Source: an uncultured Acidimicrobiaceae bacterium
GTDB lineage: Bacteria > Actinomycetota > Acidimicrobiia > Acidimicrobiales > CADCSY01
Assembly (NCBI GenBank): GCA_964349215.1
Contig: CAYGGL010000001.1
Coordinates: forward strand, 4,942 to 49,448
DNA length: 44,507 bases
Direction of reading: 5' to 3'
Below the pieces are notes generated by a model, which worked only from the letters and a program-made list of their open reading frames with translations, did no database searches and was not told the DNA's origin. Of this stretch, positions 4,250 to 35,461 are shown piece by piece. Position 1 is the first letter of the stretch. Each line of letters starts with the position of its first letter. The translations under genes were made by a program, and so were the position numbers.

Positions 4250-4947
4250 CGTGGTCCTCGTTTCAACATTCGTGCGATGGTCAGGGCAGCTCGTTCTTCA
4301 ACGATGGTGAGCGACTCCGCAAAGTGCTCCATCAAGAGGCGCTCGGCTTCGAATAACTCACCGGCAATCAGTTGGTCAAGAACTCCAAGGTGTTGTTCGA
4401 TGGTTTGTCCAACACGAGTGGCGTTTAAGAAGTCCTGCATGCGCACGACCCTGATCCGCTCATTTACCTTGTGGAGCTGTTGAACTAGAGTCACATTTCC
4501 CGCAGAGCCGGCCAGTCGTTCGTGGAAATCTTCGTCCATAAGCACGAAATCGACGTCGACCTCATCGTCGTCTCCAGGAATGTCAATATCGGTCCAGTCA
4601 TTCCGCAGAGCTATGAGGTCATCTTTATTGTGTGGTGTGCCAGACATGGCGGGACGCCCGATCGCCCCCGTCTCTAATGCAAAGCGAATCTCATACAGCT
4701 CTCTTATGAGATGTAGGTCGATGAGAGTTGGGCCGTATCCTCCGCCCTCCAGGCGCTCTACCAGGCCTTCGCTGTGGAGCCTTGAAAGTACTTCTCGAAT
4801 TGGTGTGCGCGAAACGCCCAGTTCTGCCGCCAGGCGTTCTTCACCCAAACGGTGCCCCGGGGGATAATCACCCATCAACAGGCGGTGTTTGAGCGTCTGA
4901 TAAGTCAGCTCTCTCCTCGAGCTGCCTGTATCCGACGCTGTATACAT
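4246..4947 (-). CDS. GntR-family transcriptional regulator (FadR/FCD-like C-domain)
   Basis: Winged [30 protein letters not shown] plus a helical C-terminal domain. There is a 4-nt overlap with the ATPase gene. ATG at 4947 is preferred; the track uses TTG at 4956. Confidence 0.85.
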
Positions 4948-6669: not shown

Positions 6670-8279
6670 CCCGTCCAGGTAACTCAAATGCGAGGCGCTC
6701 GGCATTGTCCGCCGTTGTGATGGGCTATCGCAACGAAGATTCAATTGAGGCATCAGTTCGTTCACTTATCGATCAGGAATCGTCTGAGCCATTCGAAGTA
6801 GTCGTCGTGACTTCAGGCGGCGATTCTTCAGCCTCAATTATTAAAGAACGTTTCCCAGATGTTCGGGTTTATGACTCGCCTGAACGCTTGATGCCAGGCG
6901 GTGCTCGCAACGTTGGCGTTGGCATGTCAAACGCTGAGATTATCGGCTTTCTTGCGGCCGACTGCATTGCACTTCCAGGTTGGGTAGAGGGAAGAATCCA
7001 AGCTCATCGATCGGGAAACCCAGCGGTAGCAAGTGCGATCGTGGCACCTGAAAATTCCAACCTTGTATCAAAAGCAGCGTTGTATCTTCTCTTCCCAAGC
7101 AGACTTCCTGGTTTTTCTGCAGGCCCTGCTATTTACGCACAGAGCTTCAGTCTCTCGTTCGATGCGGAATTGCTTGGTGAACTTGGACCATTCGATGGCA
7201 ACTTGCGTATAGGTGAAGACAGCTTGATCAATGGGCGTTTAGATAAAGCGGGCATTACTGCTTGGTTTGATCCACGCATCCAAACTGCACATCCGGGCCC
7301 CTCAAAGATCACAGAGTTGGTGCGTGATCAATTTCGCCGTGGTGTGCTTCGGTCTGAATGGATGGTTGTAAACAAGCCGGCGCAAGGTCGCCGTCTTCAG
7401 ATTGAACAGCTGAGATCACCGTTCTTAATTGGTGGCGCTTGCGCATTATTGGCATTCAAGACATTGCCAAAGAGAGCACGGTCAACCGTTCGCCCTGCTT
7501 GGACTGGTGCCAGAGGAAACCGTCTCACTTTGCTCATGTGCTCACCCCTTATAGCCCTGGGCTTCTTGTCGAACCAAGCGGGTTGGGCCACTTCATTGTT
7601 TCGAACACTGGCACGCAAAGACATAGATAAAAAAGACAAGGATAAAAACGAAGACGACGAGATTGCCACGAACGCGATGCAATGTGTCGAGGCGACGATG
7701 CTACGGCGCTGGGCATCGACCTCAGGCGAGAAAGTTATTGCCCTTACCTTTGACGACGGCCCCGGTGACGACACTTCTGCCTTGTTAGATGAACTTGCTC
7801 GCCTTGAGGTGAAGGCCACGTTCTTTGTCCTCGGAGATCAGGTGCTCAAGCGCCCTGGAGTGGTTAAGCGCATGGTCGAAGGGGGTCACGTTGTTGGCAC
7901 TCACGGATTTCACCACACGCCATTTACTGAAATCGGTTCTTTTAAACTTGGCGAAGAGGTTCGAATGGCAAAGGACATGCTGAGTATAACAATCGGCAAG
8001 CCGGTCACACTCGTTCGACCTCCAGGTGGCCATTACGACACCAAAACCATTGAAGTTTTGGCTCAACTAGGACTTACCACCTGGCTTTGGACCATCGACT
8101 CCCAAGATTGGGCAAGTAAAGACGCCAAAGCCATTTCAAACGCCGTTGTATCGGAGGTGGCTCCCGGAGCGGTGGTCTTGTTGCACGATGGCCCAAACGA
8201 TAGGGCAGCTACCGTCGCAGCGTTGTCAACAATTGTCGAGGAAGCAAAGGCTCGTGGCTACAGGTTCGTCACTCTCTAG
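6666..8279 (+). CDS. Fusion protein: family 2 glycosyltransferase, two TM helices, K/D-rich linker and NodB-type polysaccharide deacetylase
   Basis: N-terminal part: SAVVMGYRNEDSIEASVRSL, VVVVTSGGD. TM helices: FLIGGACALLAF and LTLLMCSPLIALGFL. Linker: KDIDKKDKDKNEDDE. C-terminal part has all five NodB motifs: TFDDGP, GTHGFHH, RPPGG, DSQDW, LLHD. GTG at 6666 overlaps the upstream stop (GTGA), whereas the track start at 6540 would overlap the upstream gene by 130 nt. Confidence 0.8.
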   Translation: MTRPGNSNARRSALSAVVMGYRNEDSIEASVRSLIDQESSEPFEVVVVTSGGDSSASIIKERFPDVRVYDSPERLMPGGARNVGVGMSNAEIIGFLAADCIALPGWVEGRIQAHRSGNPAVASAIVAPENSNLVSKAALYLLFPSRLPGFSAGPAIYAQSFSLSFDAELLGELGPFDGNLRIGEDSLINGRLDKAGITAWFDPRIQTAHPGPSKITELVRDQFRRGVLRSEWMVVNKPAQGRRLQIEQLRSPFLIGGACALLAFKTLPKRARSTVRPAWTGARGNRLTLLMCSPLIALGFLSNQAGWATSLFRTLARKDIDKKDKDKNEDDEIATNAMQCVEATMLRRWASTSGEKVIALTFDDGPGDDTSALLDELARLEVKATFFVLGDQVLKRPGVVKRMVEGGHVVGTHGFHHTPFTEIGSFKLGEEVRMAKDMLSITIGKPVTLVRPPGGHYDTKTIEVLAQLGLTTWLWTIDSQDWASKDAKAISNAVVSEVAPGAVVLLHDGPNDRAATVAALSTIVEEAKARGYRFVTL

Positions 8280-17982: not shown

Positions 17983-18540
17983 ATGCTCGCAGTCTTTGCG
18001 TCGCTGCTGACGCTCCCATTGATTTTTCCTCACTCTGCAACGAGTGAAGTTCCAACTGACCTTGTTTCTGGAGTTTCAACCAAACAGTCCTCAGAGGGAA
18101 TGGCCTCTATCACCAAAGAGTGGGCCAAGATTCGTGAGGCGATTGCAGCTACCTCCACTACCACCACGACCACCACCACCACCACGACCGCCCCACCACC
18201 GCCGCCAACTACTGCGGCACCAATACGAACTCGAACCAGTGTCACCTTGGTTCCCACAACCACGGTTCCCCCAGAACCTGTTGCGCCGCCCACGTCTCAG
18301 TCTGGCTTGGCATCTTGGTATGAATTAGAGGGCGCGCATGCTGGTGTTTGTGCGCACAGAACTCTTCCTTTTGGAACCGTAGTGACCGTCACGGTTGTAA
18401 AGACGGGATCCTCAATGTCCTGTGTGGTGGGCGACCGAGGTCCGTTTGCCGCCAACTTGGTTATCGACCTCTTCCGTGATGATTTCGCGACCATTGCACC
18501 ACTTGGTGCCGGTGTGGTTTCAGTTCATCTGACGTGGTGA
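17983..18540 (+). CDS. Secreted RlpA-like double-psi beta-barrel (DPBB) protein with a poly-Thr/Pro linker
   Basis: Signal peptide, T11-A-P5 linker, then GLASWYE..GVCAHRTLPFGTVVTVT..SMSCVVGDRGPF....VIDL, typical of the RlpA/DPBB_1 fold. Confidence 0.75.
   Translation: MLAVFASLLTLPLIFPHSATSEVPTDLVSGVSTKQSSEGMASITKEWAKIREAIAATSTTTTTTTTTTTAPPPPPTTAAPIRTRTSVTLVPTTTVPPEPVAPPTSQSGLASWYELEGAHAGVCAHRTLPFGTVVTVTVVKTGSSMSCVVGDRGPFAANLVIDLFRDDFATIAPLGAGVVSVHLTW
18157..18207 (+). repeat. Low-complexity coding tract (ACC/ACG)x11 followed by a Pro5 run
   Basis: Read directly. It encodes TTTTTTTTTTTAPPPPP. Confidence 0.9.
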
Positions 18541-19390: not shown

Positions 19391-20122
19391 ATGAACCCAA
19401 ACCCAACACAATTTCTGCCGACAACCGTAAGGGCGTTGGCCAAGCTGACTCTCTCACTGCGCATTGGCCAGACGCGTCCAGATGGTTATCACGAGATTGA
19501 TGCAGAAATGGTCACGCTTGATTTATGCGATGAGTTGACATTCAAGCCCGGCGACGGCCTCGAAGTATTTGGTGCCGTTGGACTACCGATTCAAAGTGAT
19601 GACGACAATTTGGTTCGGCGCGCTCTTAAGGCAACTGGCCGCACGGCACAGGTTCGACTTGATAAGCGCATTCCAGCAGGGGCCGGACTTGGTGGAGGTT
19701 CGGCCGATGCGGCTGCAGTCCTTCGCTGGGCGGGTTGTGACGACATTGAAATAGCCGCAAGCCTCGGAGCAGACGTCCCGTTTTGCTTGATAGGCGGCCA
19801 TGCCCGCGTGAGTGGATTGGGCGAGATCATTGAGCCATTGCCTGCGACAAATAAGACATTCACGCTTCTCACGCCGCCCTTTGGCGTTTCTACGGTTGCG
19901 GTATATCGCAAGTGGGATGAACTCGGTGGCCCACGAAATGTTGGTCCAAATGATCTTGAGATTGCCGCCATAGCCGTGGAACCTCGACTCGTTGAGTGGA
20001 GAGAACGACTTAAAGAATTAACTGGACTTGAACCAGTGTTGGCGGGAAGCGGATCAACATGGTTTGTCGAAGGTGACTTCGAGGGCGAAGGGCTAGTTGT
20101 GACGCGAACCGACCGCCCCTGA
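19391..20122 (+). CDS. ispE: 4-diphosphocytidyl-2-C-methyl-D-erythritol kinase
   Basis: LAKLTLSLRIGQTRPDGYHEI, the GHMP motif IPAGAGLGGGSADAAAVL, and AGSGSTWF. At 243 aa it is short for the family. Confidence 0.88.
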   Translation: MNPNPTQFLPTTVRALAKLTLSLRIGQTRPDGYHEIDAEMVTLDLCDELTFKPGDGLEVFGAVGLPIQSDDDNLVRRALKATGRTAQVRLDKRIPAGAGLGGGSADAAAVLRWAGCDDIEIAASLGADVPFCLIGGHARVSGLGEIIEPLPATNKTFTLLTPPFGVSTVAVYRKWDELGGPRNVGPNDLEIAAIAVEPRLVEWRERLKELTGLEPVLAGSGSTWFVEGDFEGEGLVVTRTDRP

Positions 20123-20135
20123 CAGGGCGGTCGGT
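20108..20135. terminator. Perfect 11-bp stem hairpin ACCGACCGCCC-N6-GGGCGGTCGGT between convergent ispE and bS22 genes
   Basis: Read directly. The ispE TGA sits in the loop. There is no U-tract on either strand, so it would be an I-shaped terminator. Confidence 0.4.
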
Positions 20136-20177
20136 CATTGGTCAGCTAGTCAATGTTTAGCTACGAGCTGTAAGTGG

Positions 20178-20276
20178 TTACTTCTTAGCTCGTCGTTGGA
20201 AGCGCGTTCGCTTCAACATCTTCTTGTGCTTCTTCTTGCGCATTCTTTTGCGGCGTTTTTTAATCAACGAACCCAT
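20178..20276 (-). CDS. 30S ribosomal protein bS22 (32 aa)
   Basis: Below the ORF-track cut-off. Manual translation gives MGSLIKKRRKRMRKKKHKKMLKRTRFQRRAKK, close to mycobacterial bS22 as I recall it (MGSVIKKRRKRM.KKKH.KLL..TR.QRR). Confidence 0.8.
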   Translation of the reverse strand: MGSLIKKRRKRMRKKKHKKMLKRTRFQRRAKK

Positions 20277-20324
20277 GAGGATCACGAGGTTACCGGGAGA
20301 AAGGGCAAGAGACGCAACTGGGGC

Positions 20325-20330
20325 TAGTAT
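20325..20330 (+). promoter_or_regulatory. Candidate -10 hexamer TAGTAT for tRNA-Gln
   Basis: Fits the actinobacterial TANNNT consensus and lies 12 nt upstream of tRNA position 1. No clear -35 element. Confidence 0.3.
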
Positions 20331-20342
20331 GTTCGAGGCTGT

Positions 20343-20418
20343 TGGCGGGTAGTTCAGCTGGCAGAACGCCTGATTTTGGATCAGGAGGTCGCAGGTTCGA
20401 TCCCTGCCCCGCCAGCCA
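20343..20418 (+). tRNA. tRNA-Gln (anticodon UUG), CCA encoded
   Basis: Folded by hand. Acceptor TGGCGGG/CCCGCCA (U1:A72), D stem GTTC/GAAC, anticodon stem CCTGA/TCAGG with loop TTTTGGA, T stem GCAGG/CCTGC with loop TTCGATC, discriminator G, then CCA. Confidence 0.95.
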
Positions 20419-20469
20419 TTTCCCTTCTCATCTCCACTATTTCCATCCGAGACCGTCCTACCCCAGATC

Positions 20470-20475
20470 TATCCT
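20470..20475 (+). promoter_or_regulatory. Candidate -10 hexamer TATCCT placed 6 nt before the SIR2-like ATG (leaderless geometry)
   Basis: TANNNT match. There is no Shine-Dalgarno in the pyrimidine-rich 63 nt between the tRNA and the ATG. Confidence 0.3.
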
Positions 20476-20481
20476 GGACCC

Positions 20482-21987
20482 ATGTCTCGTTTTGTGCTCT
20501 CGCAAACCTCGGTCGTTTCAGCCCTGGACGACTTGGCAAATCAGAAAGAAATCACCGTGTTTGTCGGTGCTGGCTCAAGCGAGCAGGCCGGACTGCCAAC
20601 GTGGAACACTTTGGTGGAGCATCTACTGGTTCGAGTCGGATCGCTTCAAGGACTTTCTGATGACGATGCCATCGAGTTCGCTGATTGGACCATTAAGAGC
20701 GAGGGCTTAATGGGATCTGCTGCCATAGCTGAAGATGCCCTTGGTCCAGATTTTGAATTGGAACTAGGCAAGGCGTTATACGGTGAACGTAAGAAGCTTG
20801 TTCCTGGCGAAATTGCCGATGCCGTAGCTCGTCTTTGGGTCAATTGTGCAGACTCAGATTTAGAGATCGTCACAACTAACTACGACCTGACTCTTGAAGA
20901 TGCCCTTAAGTTTGAACTTAAAAAGCATCCAAAGCTTAAGGGCCTATCCCCAGTTTCGTTACATGATGGACGGCCGGCACCTGACGACAAACTGGTTGTT
21001 CGTCACCTGCATGGAGTCTTGCCTCCCACTGGTAAAAAGATTGGCGAAGTCATACTTACCGAAGGTTCGTATCAGCAGATGCAAAACAGTCCGTGCTGGC
21101 AGGAGGAATACTTTTCCAAAAGGCTTCAGACAAGCTCATGTCTCTTCGTCGGTACCAGTCTTTCCGACCCCAACATTTTGAGGTACCTCTACAGAGCCAA
21201 AGGTGACCTTGGAAGAAAACACTATGCGGTGTTTGTGAGGCAACAAGATGCCGAGATGTACGTTGAGCTGGACGAGAATATATGTGACGTACGTGAAGAC
21301 ATGAGTTCGAAACGTTGGGAAAATATTGGGGTGAGCCCAATCAGACTTGACTACTTTGCTGAAAGTGCTCAATTCCTTCATGAACTGGCCCTGAAAAAGA
21401 AAAACCCGAGTGCAGCCCCATTTGAAGAGCGGATGGAGTTTCTTGATGGACTCAGGACTCGGTACGAATTTTCGGAAGCGATTGAAGTTTTCGTGCCTAA
21501 CCAAGATCAGAAGCAAGAGTTACTCGCTCGTATAGTCGATGCGATATCTTCCGAGCTTCAAGAAGAAGGCTGCCCGCTCGGTCGGGGAGAGCGTCTCGGG
21601 TGTTCGTTATGGAGATATGATTCCGCTAGAAACCAGCTCATCAACTGGTTTTCTTCTGACCGGTCCTGGCGAAACCCAAGCACACTTGAACCTGTTGAAA
21701 TCAAGTGGCATAGCGACTTCGTATCTGTTATTGCATTTTGTAAGGGGAGTTGGACTTCATACAGTTCCGCACAACAATCGGCAACACGGTGGAACCATAT
21801 TATAGGTTTGCCGTTGTTTTCTGATGGCGAGGAGTTGGGCCGTCTTCCATTGGGAGTCATTACAATTGGTTCAACTGAGAGTGAATCTCATAGTGCACTG
21901 GCAAGAGGGACAAGCATCCTGGCCCCCTACATCCGTACGCTTATGCCAATATGTTCTGAGGCACTCGGTGCAGAGCGGAAAATTTGA
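20482..21987 (+). CDS. SIR2-like (SIR2_2/defence-sirtuin type) protein with an uncharacterised GAF-like C-terminal domain
   Basis: VFVGAGSSEQAGLPTWNTL, IVTTNYDLTLE (N133, D135), VVRHLHG (H175/H177), LFVGTSLSDPNI. No CxxC Zn ribbon. C-terminal residues ~345-495: LGCSLWRYD..LINWFSS..VSVIAFCKGSW..HIIGLPLFSDGEELGRLPLGVITIGST. Confidence 0.8.
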   Translation: MSRFVLSQTSVVSALDDLANQKEITVFVGAGSSEQAGLPTWNTLVEHLLVRVGSLQGLSDDDAIEFADWTIKSEGLMGSAAIAEDALGPDFELELGKALYGERKKLVPGEIADAVARLWVNCADSDLEIVTTNYDLTLEDALKFELKKHPKLKGLSPVSLHDGRPAPDDKLVVRHLHGVLPPTGKKIGEVILTEGSYQQMQNSPCWQEEYFSKRLQTSSCLFVGTSLSDPNILRYLYRAKGDLGRKHYAVFVRQQDAEMYVELDENICDVREDMSSKRWENIGVSPIRLDYFAESAQFLHELALKKKNPSAAPFEERMEFLDGLRTRYEFSEAIEVFVPNQDQKQELLARIVDAISSELQEEGCPLGRGERLGCSLWRYDSARNQLINWFSSDRSWRNPSTLEPVEIKWHSDFVSVIAFCKGSWTSYSSAQQSATRWNHIIGLPLFSDGEELGRLPLGVITIGSTESESHSALARGTSILAPYIRTLMPICSEALGAERKI

Positions 21988-22030
21988 GTTAAGTCCGACC
22001 GTGTCATACCCGATCGATAAGGTGATGGAT

Positions 22031-22204
22031 ATGAACAAAGGTGTTAGCAAGGTGATCAGTGGTATTCCTAAGGAGGGCCTTCCTAGTCGTGCCGCTCAGA
22101 AGGAACTTAAGTTGATCGCAGAATCGGTACGGTCTTCGGATTCGGCTAAAGAAATTAACCGTGCAATTCAGGCTCGCAAACTAGAAAAAGCTAAGAACCG
22201 CTGA
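22031..22204 (+). CDS. Small basic, predicted helical protein (57 aa, or 59 aa from ATG 22025)
   Basis: M(DM)NKGVSKVISGIPKEGLPSRAAQKELKLIAESVRSSDSAKEINRAIQARKLEKAKNR. AAGGTG lies 7 nt upstream of ATG 22031. It begins 44 nt after the SIR2-like stop. No recognisable family. Confidence 0.45.
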   Translation: MNKGVSKVISGIPKEGLPSRAAQKELKLIAESVRSSDSAKEINRAIQARKLEKAKNR

Positions 22205-22264
22205 CATTCTGAGTCAGGCAGAAAGAAATCCGTACCCGTGTTGTGATGCGGTCGTTGATCTAGG

Positions 22265-23371
22265 GTGGCCGTAATGGCTGAACGGAAGTTGACCTCGGTG
22301 ATTTTGGCTGCGGGAATTGGAACCCGCATGCGTTCCGAACGCCCAAAGCCACTTCATCTCTTGTGTGGTCGGGCAATGCTCCTTCATGTTCTCGATGCCG
22401 TAGCCGAGCTTGAAGTTGAGCGAGCGGTTGTTGTTGTTGGACACGGTGCAGAACGGGTTACCAAGAAGCTCATTGAACTCGGCCCAAACGGTCTACCCAT
22501 AGATTTCGTTGTACAAGCAGAACAACGCGGTACCGGCGATGCTCTCATGGCAGGACTCACTGCGTTTCCAGACGACGATGTAGACGATGGTGACTTGTTA
22601 GTCCTCCCCGGCGACACCCCATTGCTCCTCAGTGACACCCTTGCGCACCTTGTTAGCACCCATCGAAAGGCTGAGGCAGCGGCAACCTTGTTGACCGCTC
22701 GACTAAACGATCCAACTGGCTATGGCCGAGTCATCAGAGACAAGGGGAATCGCATCGTCCGCATAGTGGAACAGGCCGATTCAACACCCGAAGAGGCTCT
22801 GGTCGATGAGGTGGCGACTTCTATCTATTGCTTCCGTCGCAGTCTCGTGGCCCCAGCCCTGCGCCGTCTGGATCCCGAGAACGCACAAGGTGAGTACTAT
22901 CTGACTGATGTAATCGAGGTCCTCGGGGCAGCTGGGTATCCCATTGCGTCGTATGTGGTCGAGGATGCACTCGAGATCGTAGGTGTCAACGATCGAGCGC
23001 AGTTGGCAGCGGCCGAAGCCGAGCTCCGACGACGTACTAACCAAAAATGGATGAGCCTAGGCGTCACGATGATTGACCCGGCTCAAACCTATGTAGATGC
23101 AACAGTTGAGTTGGCACCCGATGTCACATTGTTTCCGGGAACAATTCTCCAAGGGCGCACCCGAGTGGGTAGTGGTGCAGAGATTGGACCGAACTCCCAG
23201 TTGATCGATTGCGTGGTGGGCGATGACGCCGTTGTTGCCAAAACCGTTGGTGATAACGCCGAAATCGGCTCTCAAGCCCATGTCGGCCCCTTTGCTTATC
23301 TTGGCCCGGGAACGGTCATAGCCAAGGGTGAAGTGATCGGACCGTTCTACAATGGAAATTCGAGGACATAA
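22265..23371 (+). CDS. glmU: GlmU-like UDP-N-acetylglucosamine pyrophosphorylase with a C-terminally short left-handed beta-helix domain
   Basis: VILAAGIGTRMRSERPKPLHLLCGRAML, GTGDAL, YYLTDV, then hexapeptide repeats ending at VGPFAYLGPGTVIAKGEVIGPF. It is only 368 aa against ~455-495 aa for canonical GlmU. Confidence 0.8.
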   Translation: MAVMAERKLTSVILAAGIGTRMRSERPKPLHLLCGRAMLLHVLDAVAELEVERAVVVVGHGAERVTKKLIELGPNGLPIDFVVQAEQRGTGDALMAGLTAFPDDDVDDGDLLVLPGDTPLLLSDTLAHLVSTHRKAEAAATLLTARLNDPTGYGRVIRDKGNRIVRIVEQADSTPEEALVDEVATSIYCFRRSLVAPALRRLDPENAQGEYYLTDVIEVLGAAGYPIASYVVEDALEIVGVNDRAQLAAAEAELRRRTNQKWMSLGVTMIDPAQTYVDATVELAPDVTLFPGTILQGRTRVGSGAEIGPNSQLIDCVVGDDAVVAKTVGDNAEIGSQAHVGPFAYLGPGTVIAKGEVIGPFYNGNSRT

Positions 23372-33547: not shown

Positions 33548-35461
33548 ATGAAACGCTCGAATCGCGCAATCGCAGTTGTGGTTGGCTTGTTGATGGTCAC
33601 TACGGCTTGCGGTGGTGGTGACAGTAAGAAGAGTTCATCAGGTGACAAGGCCGGATCCACTGCTGCCGCCAAGGGGGGTACTGCTACGGCTCAGGCGCTG
33701 TTTTACCAAGATACTCCTGAGGGTGGTAAGGGTGGTTTCAGCGAGGTGCGAGTTCGTATGGCCTCATCTGATGAAAAGACCTTGCGTGTAGGCTTTACCG
33801 AAGACGAAGTTGCGGGTACGGGTGACCAATGGCGAGCGGCAGGGTGGTCTGCCACGACAGTGGCCACGTTGCTTACCGGTGCTGCCTTAACTGGTCGCGA
33901 AGTCACCTTTGATGTGTCCGGTCGTATTGATGGTCCGAGCGCAGGGGCTCTGATGACAGTTTCAGTGTTGGCCCTGATACGCGGCGATAAGTTGAAGACC
34001 GATATCACAATGACGGGAACGATCAACCCCGATGGAACGATTGGTCCGGTCGGTGGTATTCCACTCAAGCTCGACGGCGCTATAGCTGCCAAGAAGAAGC
34101 GCATGCTGGTACCTGTCGGACAGCGCAACAGTACCCATCCGGGAACCGGTGAGATGGTAGATGTTGTTGTTGCCGGACGTAAGAAGGGCATCGAGGTAAT
34201 CGAAGTAGATAATATCTATGAGGTCTACAAAGCCTTTACCGGTAAGACGTTGCCCCGTCCTGTGCCTGGCGAAGATGTAACGCTCAATGAAAAGTCCTAC
34301 AAACGTTTAGAGGCCAAGACCAATACGTGGCTGGCTGAGTACCAAGCGGCAGCAAGTTCGTGGGCAAGTCTTCCCCCTGAGCTTCAAGCCGAACTCGATT
34401 TGACCGATGCCCAAGAGACGGCCGATCGAGCGGGCAGGCTTTCTCAACAAGGACTACAAGCCGGTGCCTATTCGGCAGCAATCGAAGCTGCAGCTCTCGC
34501 TAATGCATTAGTCAAGGTCGGCGAAGGTCTTACGTCATATTTAACCGGTGGGGCAGCTGCTTTCTTGGCCAAGATTGAAGCCAGCCAATCGATCACCGGC
34601 AAGGTGAACGCTCTTGTTGACTCGCTACAGACCTTTGACCCCGAGACAGTAGGTGATGCTGCTGCGTTGATTGATGCATATACAGCAGCCATTGACGCAG
34701 TAAGTCTTGCGAGCTTTGCAGAAGGTCAGCTCAACATTGATGGCCTAGGCGAAGAAGAGGCTCTAAGTCAGTTGAGTATCGCTGCATTGTTCTACGAGAT
34801 CGCCGGCAGCATGGTCGAGGCAGCAGGTGACTCGGTAGAAATCGGACGGGGATTGGGTGGGGTTAAGTTGGCCAAAGACCTGAACCTTGATTCAGTTGCT
34901 GATTTCTTCAGGAAGTCGGGTGAGGCAAACCTCGCTGCATTCGACACAGTGGTGCTCGGCCCAGCAGCGAGTTCTCAGGGCGTCAGTATCGACATCATGA
35001 AAAATGCATTTGCCAATAAAGATATTGAATACGCACTAGCTCTTTCAGGATCTGGGGTCATGGCGAATCTGGAGGAGTATTTCGGCGACCTCGATACCAG
35101 CGCTTTTGCTTCCCTCGGAGGGGCTCTGGCGCTTTATGGCCGAACAAGTGGTCTGATGGCTCGTTATTACTCGCTCGGAGAACTTACCGACGAAGCGGGC
35201 AACGTCGTCGGTGTCGAGAACGAGAAGGCATTGACAGCGTCGCTTGAGCTTGCTCAAGACCAGCTTGGACGCAGCATCACACTGTTGCGTTCGAAGAAAG
35301 TGGAGCCGGTTCCAGTTGTTGGTGCCTATGAAGTCGGAGGCATTGATCGAGAAGGTGATACCGAAGACAAGCTCTCTGCACTTGTGAGTTATTGGAACGG
35401 TTTTGTCGGTAGCCGCATTTTGACCTATCTCGGAGGTTTCTCCACAGCAGGGTTGAAGTAA
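33548..35461 (+). CDS. Secreted lipoprotein with a Lon-like S16 peptidase domain and a ~400 aa Ala-rich helical C-terminal domain
   Basis: Lipobox VTTACGG. RIDGPSAGALMTVSVLAL (catalytic Ser context), ITMTGTINPDGTIGPVGGIPLKLDGA (Lys context). No AAA+, PDZ or further TM segment seen. AAAGGAGG Shine-Dalgarno. Confidence 0.75.
   Translation: MKRSNRAIAVVVGLLMVTTACGGGDSKKSSSGDKAGSTAAAKGGTATAQALFYQDTPEGGKGGFSEVRVRMASSDEKTLRVGFTEDEVAGTGDQWRAAGWSATTVATLLTGAALTGREVTFDVSGRIDGPSAGALMTVSVLALIRGDKLKTDITMTGTINPDGTIGPVGGIPLKLDGAIAAKKKRMLVPVGQRNSTHPGTGEMVDVVVAGRKKGIEVIEVDNIYEVYKAFTGKTLPRPVPGEDVTLNEKSYKRLEAKTNTWLAEYQAAASSWASLPPELQAELDLTDAQETADRAGRLSQQGLQAGAYSAAIEAAALANALVKVGEGLTSYLTGGAAAFLAKIEASQSITGKVNALVDSLQTFDPETVGDAAALIDAYTAAIDAVSLASFAEGQLNIDGLGEEEALSQLSIAALFYEIAGSMVEAAGDSVEIGRGLGGVKLAKDLNLDSVADFFRKSGEANLAAFDTVVLGPAASSQGVSIDIMKNAFANKDIEYALALSGSGVMANLEEYFGDLDTSAFASLGGALALYGRTSGLMARYYSLGELTDEAGNVVGVENEKALTASLELAQDQLGRSITLLRSKKVEPVPVVGAYEVGGIDREGDTEDKLSALVSYWNGFVGSRILTYLGGFSTAGLK

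Follow-up and report, generated by a model that had tools for sequence, protein, structure and literature searches.

Gene content of the locus

The stretch of DNA analysed here (the window, 44,507 nucleotides) belongs to an uncultured Acidimicrobiaceae bacterium and covers positions 4,942 to 49,448 of contig CAYGGL010000001.1 (assembly GCA_964349215.1). Between the genes of tRNA-Gln and GlmU it carries an accessory insert of exactly two open reading frames (ORFs). The first one encodes a protein of 501 residues, called SIR2-GAF here, in which a SIR2 domain is followed by a domain of GAF fold; the second one is a small ORF of 57 codons. Judging from sequence, SIR2-GAF and its small partner are a well-supported candidate for a defence module. 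The features are given below in positions of the window.

20343..20418, plus strand: tRNA-Gln gene (anticodon TTG), detected with ARAGORN and by the Rfam tRNA model (68 bits); the insert begins directly after its 3' end
20419..22264, no strand: accessory insert of 1846 nt between tRNA-Gln and glmU, defined by the empty sites of two related loci (L021 and L022)
20482..21987, plus strand: gene of the SIR2-GAF protein, 501 aa, ATG start
20482..21402, plus strand: SIR2_2 (defence-type sirtuin) domain, residues ~1-307, from Pfam, the SIR2 parts of ThsA and Dsr1 in PADLOC, PDB profile search, Foldseek and conservation
20878-20880 and 21010-21012, plus strand: codons of N133 and H177, respectively; the GAGSS NAD-binding loop corresponds to residues 29-33
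21481..21966, plus strand: GAF-fold C-terminal domain, residues ~334-495, from the AlphaFold model, Foldseek (PDB and viral proteins), a weak Pfam GAF match and conservation
22031..22204, plus strand: putative small partner ORF, 57 aa from the ATG at 22031 or 59 aa if the ATG at 22025 is used, with the stop at 22204

The SIR2-GAF gene starts 63 nt past tRNA-Gln. The insert is surrounded by a run of housekeeping genes (metG, a gene for a DPBB protein, ksgA, ispE, glmU, prs, an L25 gene, pth and mfd), and housekeeping families were also the only Pfam matches of ten other large ORFs in the window. Two metagenome-assembled genomes (MAGs) of Acidimicrobiales, represented by L021 and L022, encode GlmU proteins of 81-82% identity and share the gene order Ku-TatD-MetG-DPBB-KsgA-IspE-tRNAGln-GlmU-Prs-L25-Pth-Mfd with the window. 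They contain no insert, the distance from tRNA-Gln to glmU being 57 nt in L021 and 15 nt in L022. In the alignment with both loci, similarity is lost exactly after ...CCGCCAGCCA, the 3' end of the tRNA. The empty site and this end of similarity identify the 1846 nt as an insert. Its G+C content of 0.486 compares with 0.533 in the remainder of the window; even the lowest value among 1846-nt windows taken at 200-nt steps, 0.488, is higher. The two-gene pair moves as a unit. No att-like repeat, whether copying the tRNA 3' end or of another kind, was found to bound the insert, and the window contains no integrase, so that the insert is not an autonomous island. Terminator-like sites in the insert occur at chance level. 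An RNA element was also considered and rejected, as a search of positions 19900-22500 against Rfam returned the tRNA only.

A preliminary description of this DNA, made from the letters alone, had stated that no TIR or cyclase partner is present. This is in line with the present analysis, in which none was found in the window, the insert holding two ORFs and its flanks being housekeeping by synteny. Genes for HerA, KomA/KomB or a short pAgo are likewise absent from the insert and its flanks.

The N-terminal domain is a defence-type SIR2 domain

The ORF and the SIR2 motifs quoted in the preliminary description were all recovered at the residues given there. In the 501-residue protein these are G29-A30-G31, TTNYD (N133/D135), HLHG (H175/H177) and FVGTSLSDPN (residues 222-231). 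The same description had proposed a non-deacylase SIR2 domain of the kind found in defence proteins, and profile and structure searches with the N-terminal domain led to the same fold. Pfam assigned residues 128-259 to SIR2_2 (PF13289; E=3.8e-19, 69.6 bits versus a cut-off of 24.5 bits) and not to the classical SIR2 family. In PADLOC the protein matched best to ThsA (E=1.9e-18, covering positions 13-277 of the 478-position model) and Dsr1, in both cases over the SIR2 part. A family profile built from 38 homologues matched the solved structures of KomC (1e-21), ThsA (6e-21), DSR2 (7e-16) and FAM118B (6e-15). In these profile matches N133 corresponds to N112 of ThsA and N107 of KomC, and H177 to H146 of KomC, the residue mutated in PDB entry 9XVC. 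Overall, the SIR2 assignment of the N-terminal domain is far beyond chance.

A CobB-type deacetylase had been considered unlikely, and this view is strengthened by two observations. No CxxC pair, as expected for a zinc-ribbon module, is present in the 501-residue sequence, and classical sirtuins align with the family profile only at positions ~11-43 (the NAD-loop region) or ~93-150, with E>=3e-4.

The full-length AlphaFold model reached a predicted local distance difference test (pLDDT) score of 92.2 and a predicted template modelling (pTM) score of 0.92, the latter pointing to a fixed arrangement of the SIR2 and GAF parts in the model. Foldseek searches of the PDB with this model returned ThsA, DSR2 and KomC over ~310-420 columns, i.e. 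essentially the SIR2 part. Apart from FAM118B, the closest solved proteins in both sequence and fold (ThsA, DSR2, KomC) are thus NADases directed against phage.

The C-terminal domain adopts a GAF-like fold

The 174 C-terminal residues were modelled alone with a pLDDT of 93.4. The model consists of a long helix, two strands, a short strand, a helix, a strand, two long strands and a C-terminal helix. As in a GAF fold, an antiparallel sheet packs against helices from both termini. The top Foldseek match in the PDB was the free Met-R-sulfoxide reductase (fRMsr), a GAF domain (E=1.9e-5), followed by the tandem GAF of CyaB2 (2.3e-4), a GAF sensor protein, Nlh1, PDE5A, PDE2A and DevS. The best matches had probabilities of 0.98-1.0 and E-values from 1.9e-5 to 8e-4. 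The GAF-like periplasmic domain of the T4 holin T was also among the matches (E~1e-3). A sequence-profile search of the PDB with the C-terminal domain returned noise and no match, and among 34 members of the family a single one gave a match to Pfam GAF, below threshold (E=0.013).

The GAF-type fold guessed earlier from the strand pattern is thus confirmed at the fold level by model and Foldseek, with Pfam scores remaining sub-threshold. As the fold matches GAF while the sequence scores stay below the cut-off, the domain is designated here as GAF-fold (GAF-like). The statement that it is not a SLOG domain was equally upheld: the PADLOC match to ThsA ends at position 277 of 478 in the model, the Pfam family STALD gave no match in the 501-residue protein at E<=1, and the fold search pointed to GAF. 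An enzyme of the fRMsr type in the C-terminal domain was considered and rejected, since the sole conserved cysteine, C420, is replaced in about one quarter of the members.

Distribution and conservation of the family

A word-indexed search yielded about 40 full-length relatives of ~500 aa with 28-46% identity, all carrying PF13289 and no other Pfam domain. Nearly all of them come from metagenomes or MAGs of Acidimicrobiia/Actinomycetota, and sources label the proteins of the family simply as 'SIR2 family protein'. An exhaustive search with a hidden Markov model (HMM) of the C-terminal domain retrieved 732 cluster representatives at E<=1e-3, of which 476 at E<=1e-10. Among the best 150 of the 732, nearly all are ~500 aa long with the C-terminal domain at ~330-500, or are fragments; nine of the ten members of atypical length that were inspected have SIR2_2 upstream of the C-terminal domain. 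On the basis of this common layout, the GAF-like domain of this family was found only fused to SIR2. Family member P0214 (520 aa) shows a strong match to the C-terminal domain (residues 287-456) and none to Pfam SIR2_2; its N-terminal domain may have diverged or been replaced.

Conservation was analysed with 132 diverse full-length members, taken as representatives of clusters at 50% identity. In the SIR2 domain, N133 and D135 are present in 131 of 131 aligned members, H175 in 130 and H177 in 129, which answers positively whether the Asn/His pair is kept among diverse homologues. The glycine loop G29-A30-G31 occurs in all of the 126 members with residues aligned there. In the C-terminal domain the conserved residues include P444 and G458 (131 members each), W437 (130), G422 (128), W377 (127), E370 (124), D393 (118) and R394 (112); R436 is also conserved. 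E301 and Q341, located in the helices that join both domains, are each conserved in 131. Such conservation across the 132 members indicates that the catalytic centre and the C-terminal domain are both under selection.

A 10-20-residue insertion in the β1-β2 loop of the GAF-like domain was observed in P0030, P0031, P0033, P0034, P0035 and P0037 (alignment A1, columns ~520-545). In this group DNA was available for two loci (L016, L020), which encode a distinct type of small protein, ...RSEEKLR.L..LKEA...; this could be co-variation between loop and small protein or mere shared ancestry.

A small ORF constantly follows the SIR2-GAF gene

The 57-aa ORF mentioned in the preliminary description exists, and its co-occurrence with homologues was examined. 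Loci were collected with 11 query sequences, a search which reaches close relatives only, so that the locus counts understate the family. Readable DNA was available for 20 loci (the window, L001, L003, L005-L009, L011-L014, L016-L020 and L023-L025). In all of the 20 a same-strand ORF of 46-82 aa lies 3' of the SIR2-GAF gene, starting between -8 and +83 nt relative to its stop codon, and in four loci the start overlaps this stop (ATGA or GTGA). The G+C content at third codon positions (GC3) of the small ORFs tracks that of the adjacent gene, and AGGAGG-type motifs precede several of them.

Nine pairwise comparisons within five sub-clades revealed that codon position 3 varies more than positions 1-2, with many identical residues encoded by differing codons. 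For the small ORFs of L008 and L009, changes at the three codon positions amount to 13/5/19, and 14 of the 43 identical residues are synonymous. These are signs that the small ORFs are coding and under purifying selection within sub-clades. We conclude that SIR2-GAF is constantly accompanied by a small protein which diverges rapidly. The view of SIR2-GAF as a single-protein effector is thus incomplete, since the small ORF accompanies it constantly and probably belongs to the same system.

In the window, the small ORF is considered the partner on the basis of position, size, an AAGG sequence resembling a Shine-Dalgarno (SD) site 8 nt upstream of the ATG at 22031, and the boundaries of the insert. 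In its product, a basic helical tail is predicted after a short hydrophobic segment (KVISGIPK). The ORF has no close relative and resembles the other small ORFs weakly (blastp E=0.002 with L018, among 19 sequences). Nine of the 20 loci, versus 1.7% of background ORFs, contain the motif V/I-V/I-G-x-V/I-P-R/K (in the window VISGIPK, in L018 IVGAVPR); little weight was given to this enrichment because the motif was hand-made and chosen post hoc.

Three observations concern the annotation of small ORFs on plasmids. In Rhodococcus sp. WAY2 pRWAY01 (L025, 7316-7547) RefSeq calls a 51-aa gene on the minus strand; the strand is likely mis-annotated, because the ORF read on the plus strand is a homologue of WP_139311048.1, the small gene annotated in Rhodococcus sp. 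M8-50. No annotation covers the small ORF of P. aurescens pTC1 (L024, ~7361-7555). The small ORFs of L025, Rhodococcus sp. M8-50 and pTC1 have the motif RS(A/S)(A/V)TG(K/R)(F/Y) in common.

Genomic context of the homologues

The preliminary description had left room for homologues residing in conserved housekeeping operons. None of the homologue loci shares the housekeeping flanks of the window, many of them adjoin mobile or defence genes, and close relatives have an empty site. Restriction-modification, GmrSD, insertion sequence (IS), integrase, TrwC or ArdC genes, or plasmids, are found in at least 12 homologue loci, and such surroundings are those of most loci whose neighbours could be read, for example:

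L018: type I restriction-modification genes and a resolvase
L006: ISL3- and IS30-type transposases and a GmrSD endonuclease
L008, L009, L017: PRTase-CE and ORC/CDC6-like genes
L003: an integrase/ArdC/resolvase element after tRNA-Ile
L011: TrwC and ArdC
P0024 locus: integrase, TrwC and a ParB-methylase
L001: an integrase fragment and an IS-type helix-turn-helix (HTH) protein

In Rhodococcus and in Paenarthrobacter aurescens TC1, more distant full-length homologues (25% identity; E=1e-10 to 1e-13 with the C-domain HMM) are carried by plasmids that are conjugative or mobilizable; the small ORF also follows there, beside XerD, IS21 or invertases. No SIR2-GAF sequence was detected by tblastn in 50,697 phage records. 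SIR2-GAF is an accessory gene with presence/absence polymorphism and a variable context rich in mobile and defence genes.

Two arrangements were seen in subsets of the loci. In the clade of the Candidatus Poriferisodalis type (L008 3918-10049, L009 3966-8151, L017 2628-5650) the pair always adjoins the PRTase-CE and ORC/CDC6-like cluster, which may be a conserved composite defence island. In L003, and in this locus only, an XRE-type HTH gene (7351-7590) ends 10 nt before the start of SIR2-GAF; an element with integrase, ArdC and resolvase follows, and tRNA-Ile lies ~1 kb upstream.

The accessory distribution bears on the possibility of a housekeeping or regulatory sirtuin, i.e. a deacylase or ADP-ribosyltransferase acting on a cellular target under control of a metabolite through the GAF domain. 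In its favour, metabolic enzymes are often regulated by GAF domains, metabolic genes are neighbours in some loci, and relatives bear the name 'NAD-dependent SIR2 family protein deacetylase' in some sources. This explanation is nevertheless very improbable given the lack of a zinc ribbon, the membership in SIR2_2 instead of the classical SIR2 family and the fact that the best solved relatives are NADases, to which the polymorphism among close relatives, the variable context and the carriage on plasmids are added.

A second possibility is a plain toxin-antitoxin addiction pair that stabilises mobile elements instead of protecting against phage, with SIR2-GAF as the toxin and the small protein as the antitoxin. 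The two genes are tightly coupled, the second one is small and fast-evolving, and the pair is frequent on plasmids and integrative elements. However, the toxin gene would come first and the partner lacks a DNA-binding domain, the toxin has its own sensor-type domain, which would be superfluous for a simple toxin of this kind, and the pair is also found on chromosomes away from mobile genes, including in the window. An addiction pair in this strict sense is therefore considered unlikely, toxin-antitoxin function and abortive infection not being mutually exclusive.

A third possibility is a second-messenger effector similar to ThsA, whose GAF pocket binds a nucleotide (a cyclic nucleotide monophosphate (cNMP), a molecule like cyclic ADP-ribose (cADPR), or another one) made in trans or by the phage, the small ORF being accessory or irrelevant. 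GAF domains classically bind cyclic nucleotides, and the top fold matches include the cNMP-binding GAF domains of CyaB2, PDE2A and PDE5A. The polar and aromatic loop residues D393, R394, R436 and W437 are conserved, and the layout parallels the SIR2-SLOG arrangement of ThsA. On the other hand, the 20 loci with readable neighbours yielded neither a TIR nor a cyclase gene, and the small ORF is the only constant neighbour; the insert of the window consists of two ORFs only, the same two that recur in other contexts, and the top fold match, fRMsr, is a GAF domain that does not bind nucleotides. Such an effector appears improbable on balance.

Comparison with known SIR2 systems

The protein was compared with described SIR2 defence systems. 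ThsA of type I Thoeris (PDB 6LHX, 8BTO) is the best PADLOC match and the top Foldseek match; the two proteins share a SIR2_2 domain at the N-terminus, its catalytic Asn/His, a length of ~480-500 aa and a two-domain layout of effector and sensor. They differ in the C-terminal domain, which is SLOG/STALD in ThsA and of GAF fold in SIR2-GAF, and in the partner, as the ThsB/TIR protein of Thoeris is absent here and a protein of ~57 aa is found instead. DSR2 and DSR1 have a similar SIR2 NADase domain (PDB profile E=7e-16; Foldseek E~3e-11) and are also self-contained, i.e. without a signal-producing enzyme. However, DSR proteins measure ~1000-1260 aa and possess large helical sensors binding the phage tail tube protein, in contrast to the 501 aa of SIR2-GAF. 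Of the solved structures, KomC of the Kongming system (PDB 8ZSF) matches best in sequence, its catalytic H146 being aligned with H177. It is a SIR2-only protein of 264 aa that works with KomA/KomB and deoxyinosine triphosphate (dITP), and those genes are absent here. PADLOC matches to the SIR2 models of SIR2-HerA, Kongming and SPARSA were weak (E>=2.5e-5), and their partner genes are absent. By analogy, SIR2-GAF would work like ThsA or DSR, as a SIR2 effector combined with a sensor. The defining features of each known SIR2 defence family are not present: SIR2-GAF has no SLOG/TIR, no sensor of DSR size, no HerA, no pAgo and no KomAB.

Two systems with other effectors resemble parts of the proposed module. 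The periplasmic domain of the T4 holin T in complex with the antiholin RI (PDB 6PXE, 6PX4) has a GAF-like fold that is regulated by a small protein partner; it differs by its function in phage lysis timing, its periplasmic location and the lack of an enzyme domain and of sequence similarity. In the NAD+-targeting toxin-antitoxin pairs Xre-RES and MbcT-MbcA, often located on mobile DNA, an enzyme that destroys NAD+ is kept in check by a small cognate protein. These pairs have other toxin folds than SIR2-GAF, their antitoxins are usually upstream and display recognisable domains, and their toxins have no fused sensor.

The preliminary description had presented a SIR2+GAF protein of ~500 aa as a candidate for an undescribed defence family. 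No description of a SIR2 + GAF defence system was found in the full-text literature searched, and neither PADLOC (2023) nor NCBIfam has a specific model for the family. PADLOC recognised at best the SIR2 part of ThsA, and NCBIfam gave a single match to Dsr1, far below threshold (33.4 bits versus a cut-off of 1400) and restricted to the SIR2 part.

Proposed mode of action

From the sequence data, the system is most likely a mobile two-gene module of NAD+ depletion with a known type of SIR2 effector, acting by abortive infection or in a toxin-antitoxin-like manner. The favoured explanation, to which we give about an even chance, is a mobile pair made of a GAF-gated NAD+-consuming SIR2 effector and a small inhibitory 'fuse' protein, leading to abortive infection. 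The first gene would encode the NAD+-consuming effector of ThsA/DSR2/KomC type with N133 and H177 as catalytic residues. The rigidly attached GAF-fold domain would hold the SIR2 activity in check and release it. The second gene, of 46-82 codons, fast-evolving and co-translated, would provide the cognate regulator, which most likely inhibits in stoichiometric amounts, as an antitoxin-like 'fuse', by acting on the GAF-fold domain. An infection or another insult would remove or titrate the small protein or halt its replenishment, and the freed SIR2 domain would deplete NAD+ and arrest the cell.

We infer the NADase activity and the defence phenotype, as well as the direction of the effect of the small protein and its binding site; that the GAF-fold domain gates the enzyme and that the small protein is the cognate regulator are proposals of the same kind. 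The inhibitory role of the small protein is favoured because it would be co-translated stoichiometrically, because it evolves fast, like antitoxins and arms-race interfaces, and because no signal-producing enzyme was found with the pair in the loci read. The T4 holin T/antiholin RI complex offers a precedent for a GAF-like domain that reads a small protein. More specifically, the GAF-fold domain might be the receptor of the small partner protein, or of an infection-derived metabolite competing with it, an idea which is tentative and rather doubtful at this stage.

Several observations weigh against this explanation. For the C-terminal domain, the TM-scores to GAF structures are ~0.42-0.52 in Foldseek and the Pfam scores are sub-threshold (GAF_2 E=0.096, 13.3 bits versus a cut-off of 28.6 bits). 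The insert shows no promoter-like site and has no known defence gene beside it in the window, and at least four homologue loci (L005, L016, L020, L007) lie among metabolic or housekeeping genes. For the small ORFs, no homology is detectable across clades: an HMM built from five of them retrieved neither the window ORF nor those of other clades above background. Ten representative small proteins had no Pfam match at E<=0.03 and thus no recognisable domain, so that the role of inhibitor rests on analogy. In shuffle tests of individual loci the small ORF gave P=0.08-0.43 (Fisher P=0.03), which is unremarkable in G+C-rich DNA. For this reason the case for the small ORF relies on its recurrence in 20 of 20 loci and on conservation at the codon level.

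These unremarkable per-locus probabilities and the missing cross-clade homology are what would be expected of a single-gene system, in which the downstream ORFs are chance or unrelated and SIR2-GAF senses the trigger directly as DSR2 does. The presence of the ORF in every locus read, the four start/stop overlaps, the GC3 and SD signals, the protein-level conservation with synonymous change in nine comparisons from five sub-clades, and the end of the window insert just past the small ORF make a system of one gene highly unlikely.

SIR2 NADases are among the commonest bacterial immune effectors, and the known families are defined by their switch: SLOG with glyco-cyclic ADP-ribose (gcADPR), binding of the tail tube, HerA, pAgo or dITP. 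A GAF-fold switch combined with a tiny co-evolving protein would represent a further activation logic. Should the small protein or a competing metabolite be the ligand of the GAF-fold domain, SIR2-GAF would be the founding member of an NADase immune module that is self-contained and peptide- or ligand-fused, is widely spread among Actinomycetota (hundreds of clusters at 50% identity), requires no signal-generating enzyme and relies on GAF as the immune sensor. Were the small protein to act as the gate, the two genes would form a compact two-part NAD+-depletion switch usable as a tool. The family occurs in MAGs of Acidimicrobiia and on plasmids of Rhodococcus and Paenarthrobacter; as cultured carriers exist (a plasmid of Rhodococcus sp. 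M8, encoding WP_072636836.1 and the small protein WP_139311048.1, and pTC1 of P. aurescens TC1, encoding ABM10367.1), the idea is directly testable.

Additional observations in the window

Four genes of the window outside the insert deserve mention. Between ispE and tRNA-Gln, a highly basic ORF of 32 aa (MGSLIKKRRKRMRKKKHKKMLKRTRFQRRAKK) is located on the minus strand (20178..20276); it is kept in L021 and L022, called as a 33-aa gene in L021, and resembles the actinobacterial small ribosomal protein bS22. Upstream of ksgA, 17983..18540 (plus strand) encodes a secreted DPBB/RlpA-like protein (Pfam DPBB_1) with the poly-Thr/Pro linker TTTTTTTTTTTAPPPPPTTAAP, whose position is also kept in L021 and L022. 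A protein of 637 aa is encoded at 33548..35461 (plus strand), with the Lon_C proteolytic domain (residues 128-228) as sole Pfam match. Finally, the gene at 22265..23371 (plus strand), named bifunctional GlmU, encodes 368 aa, and among the 120 closest relatives listed nearly all fall within 360-375 aa; E. coli GlmU has ~456 aa.

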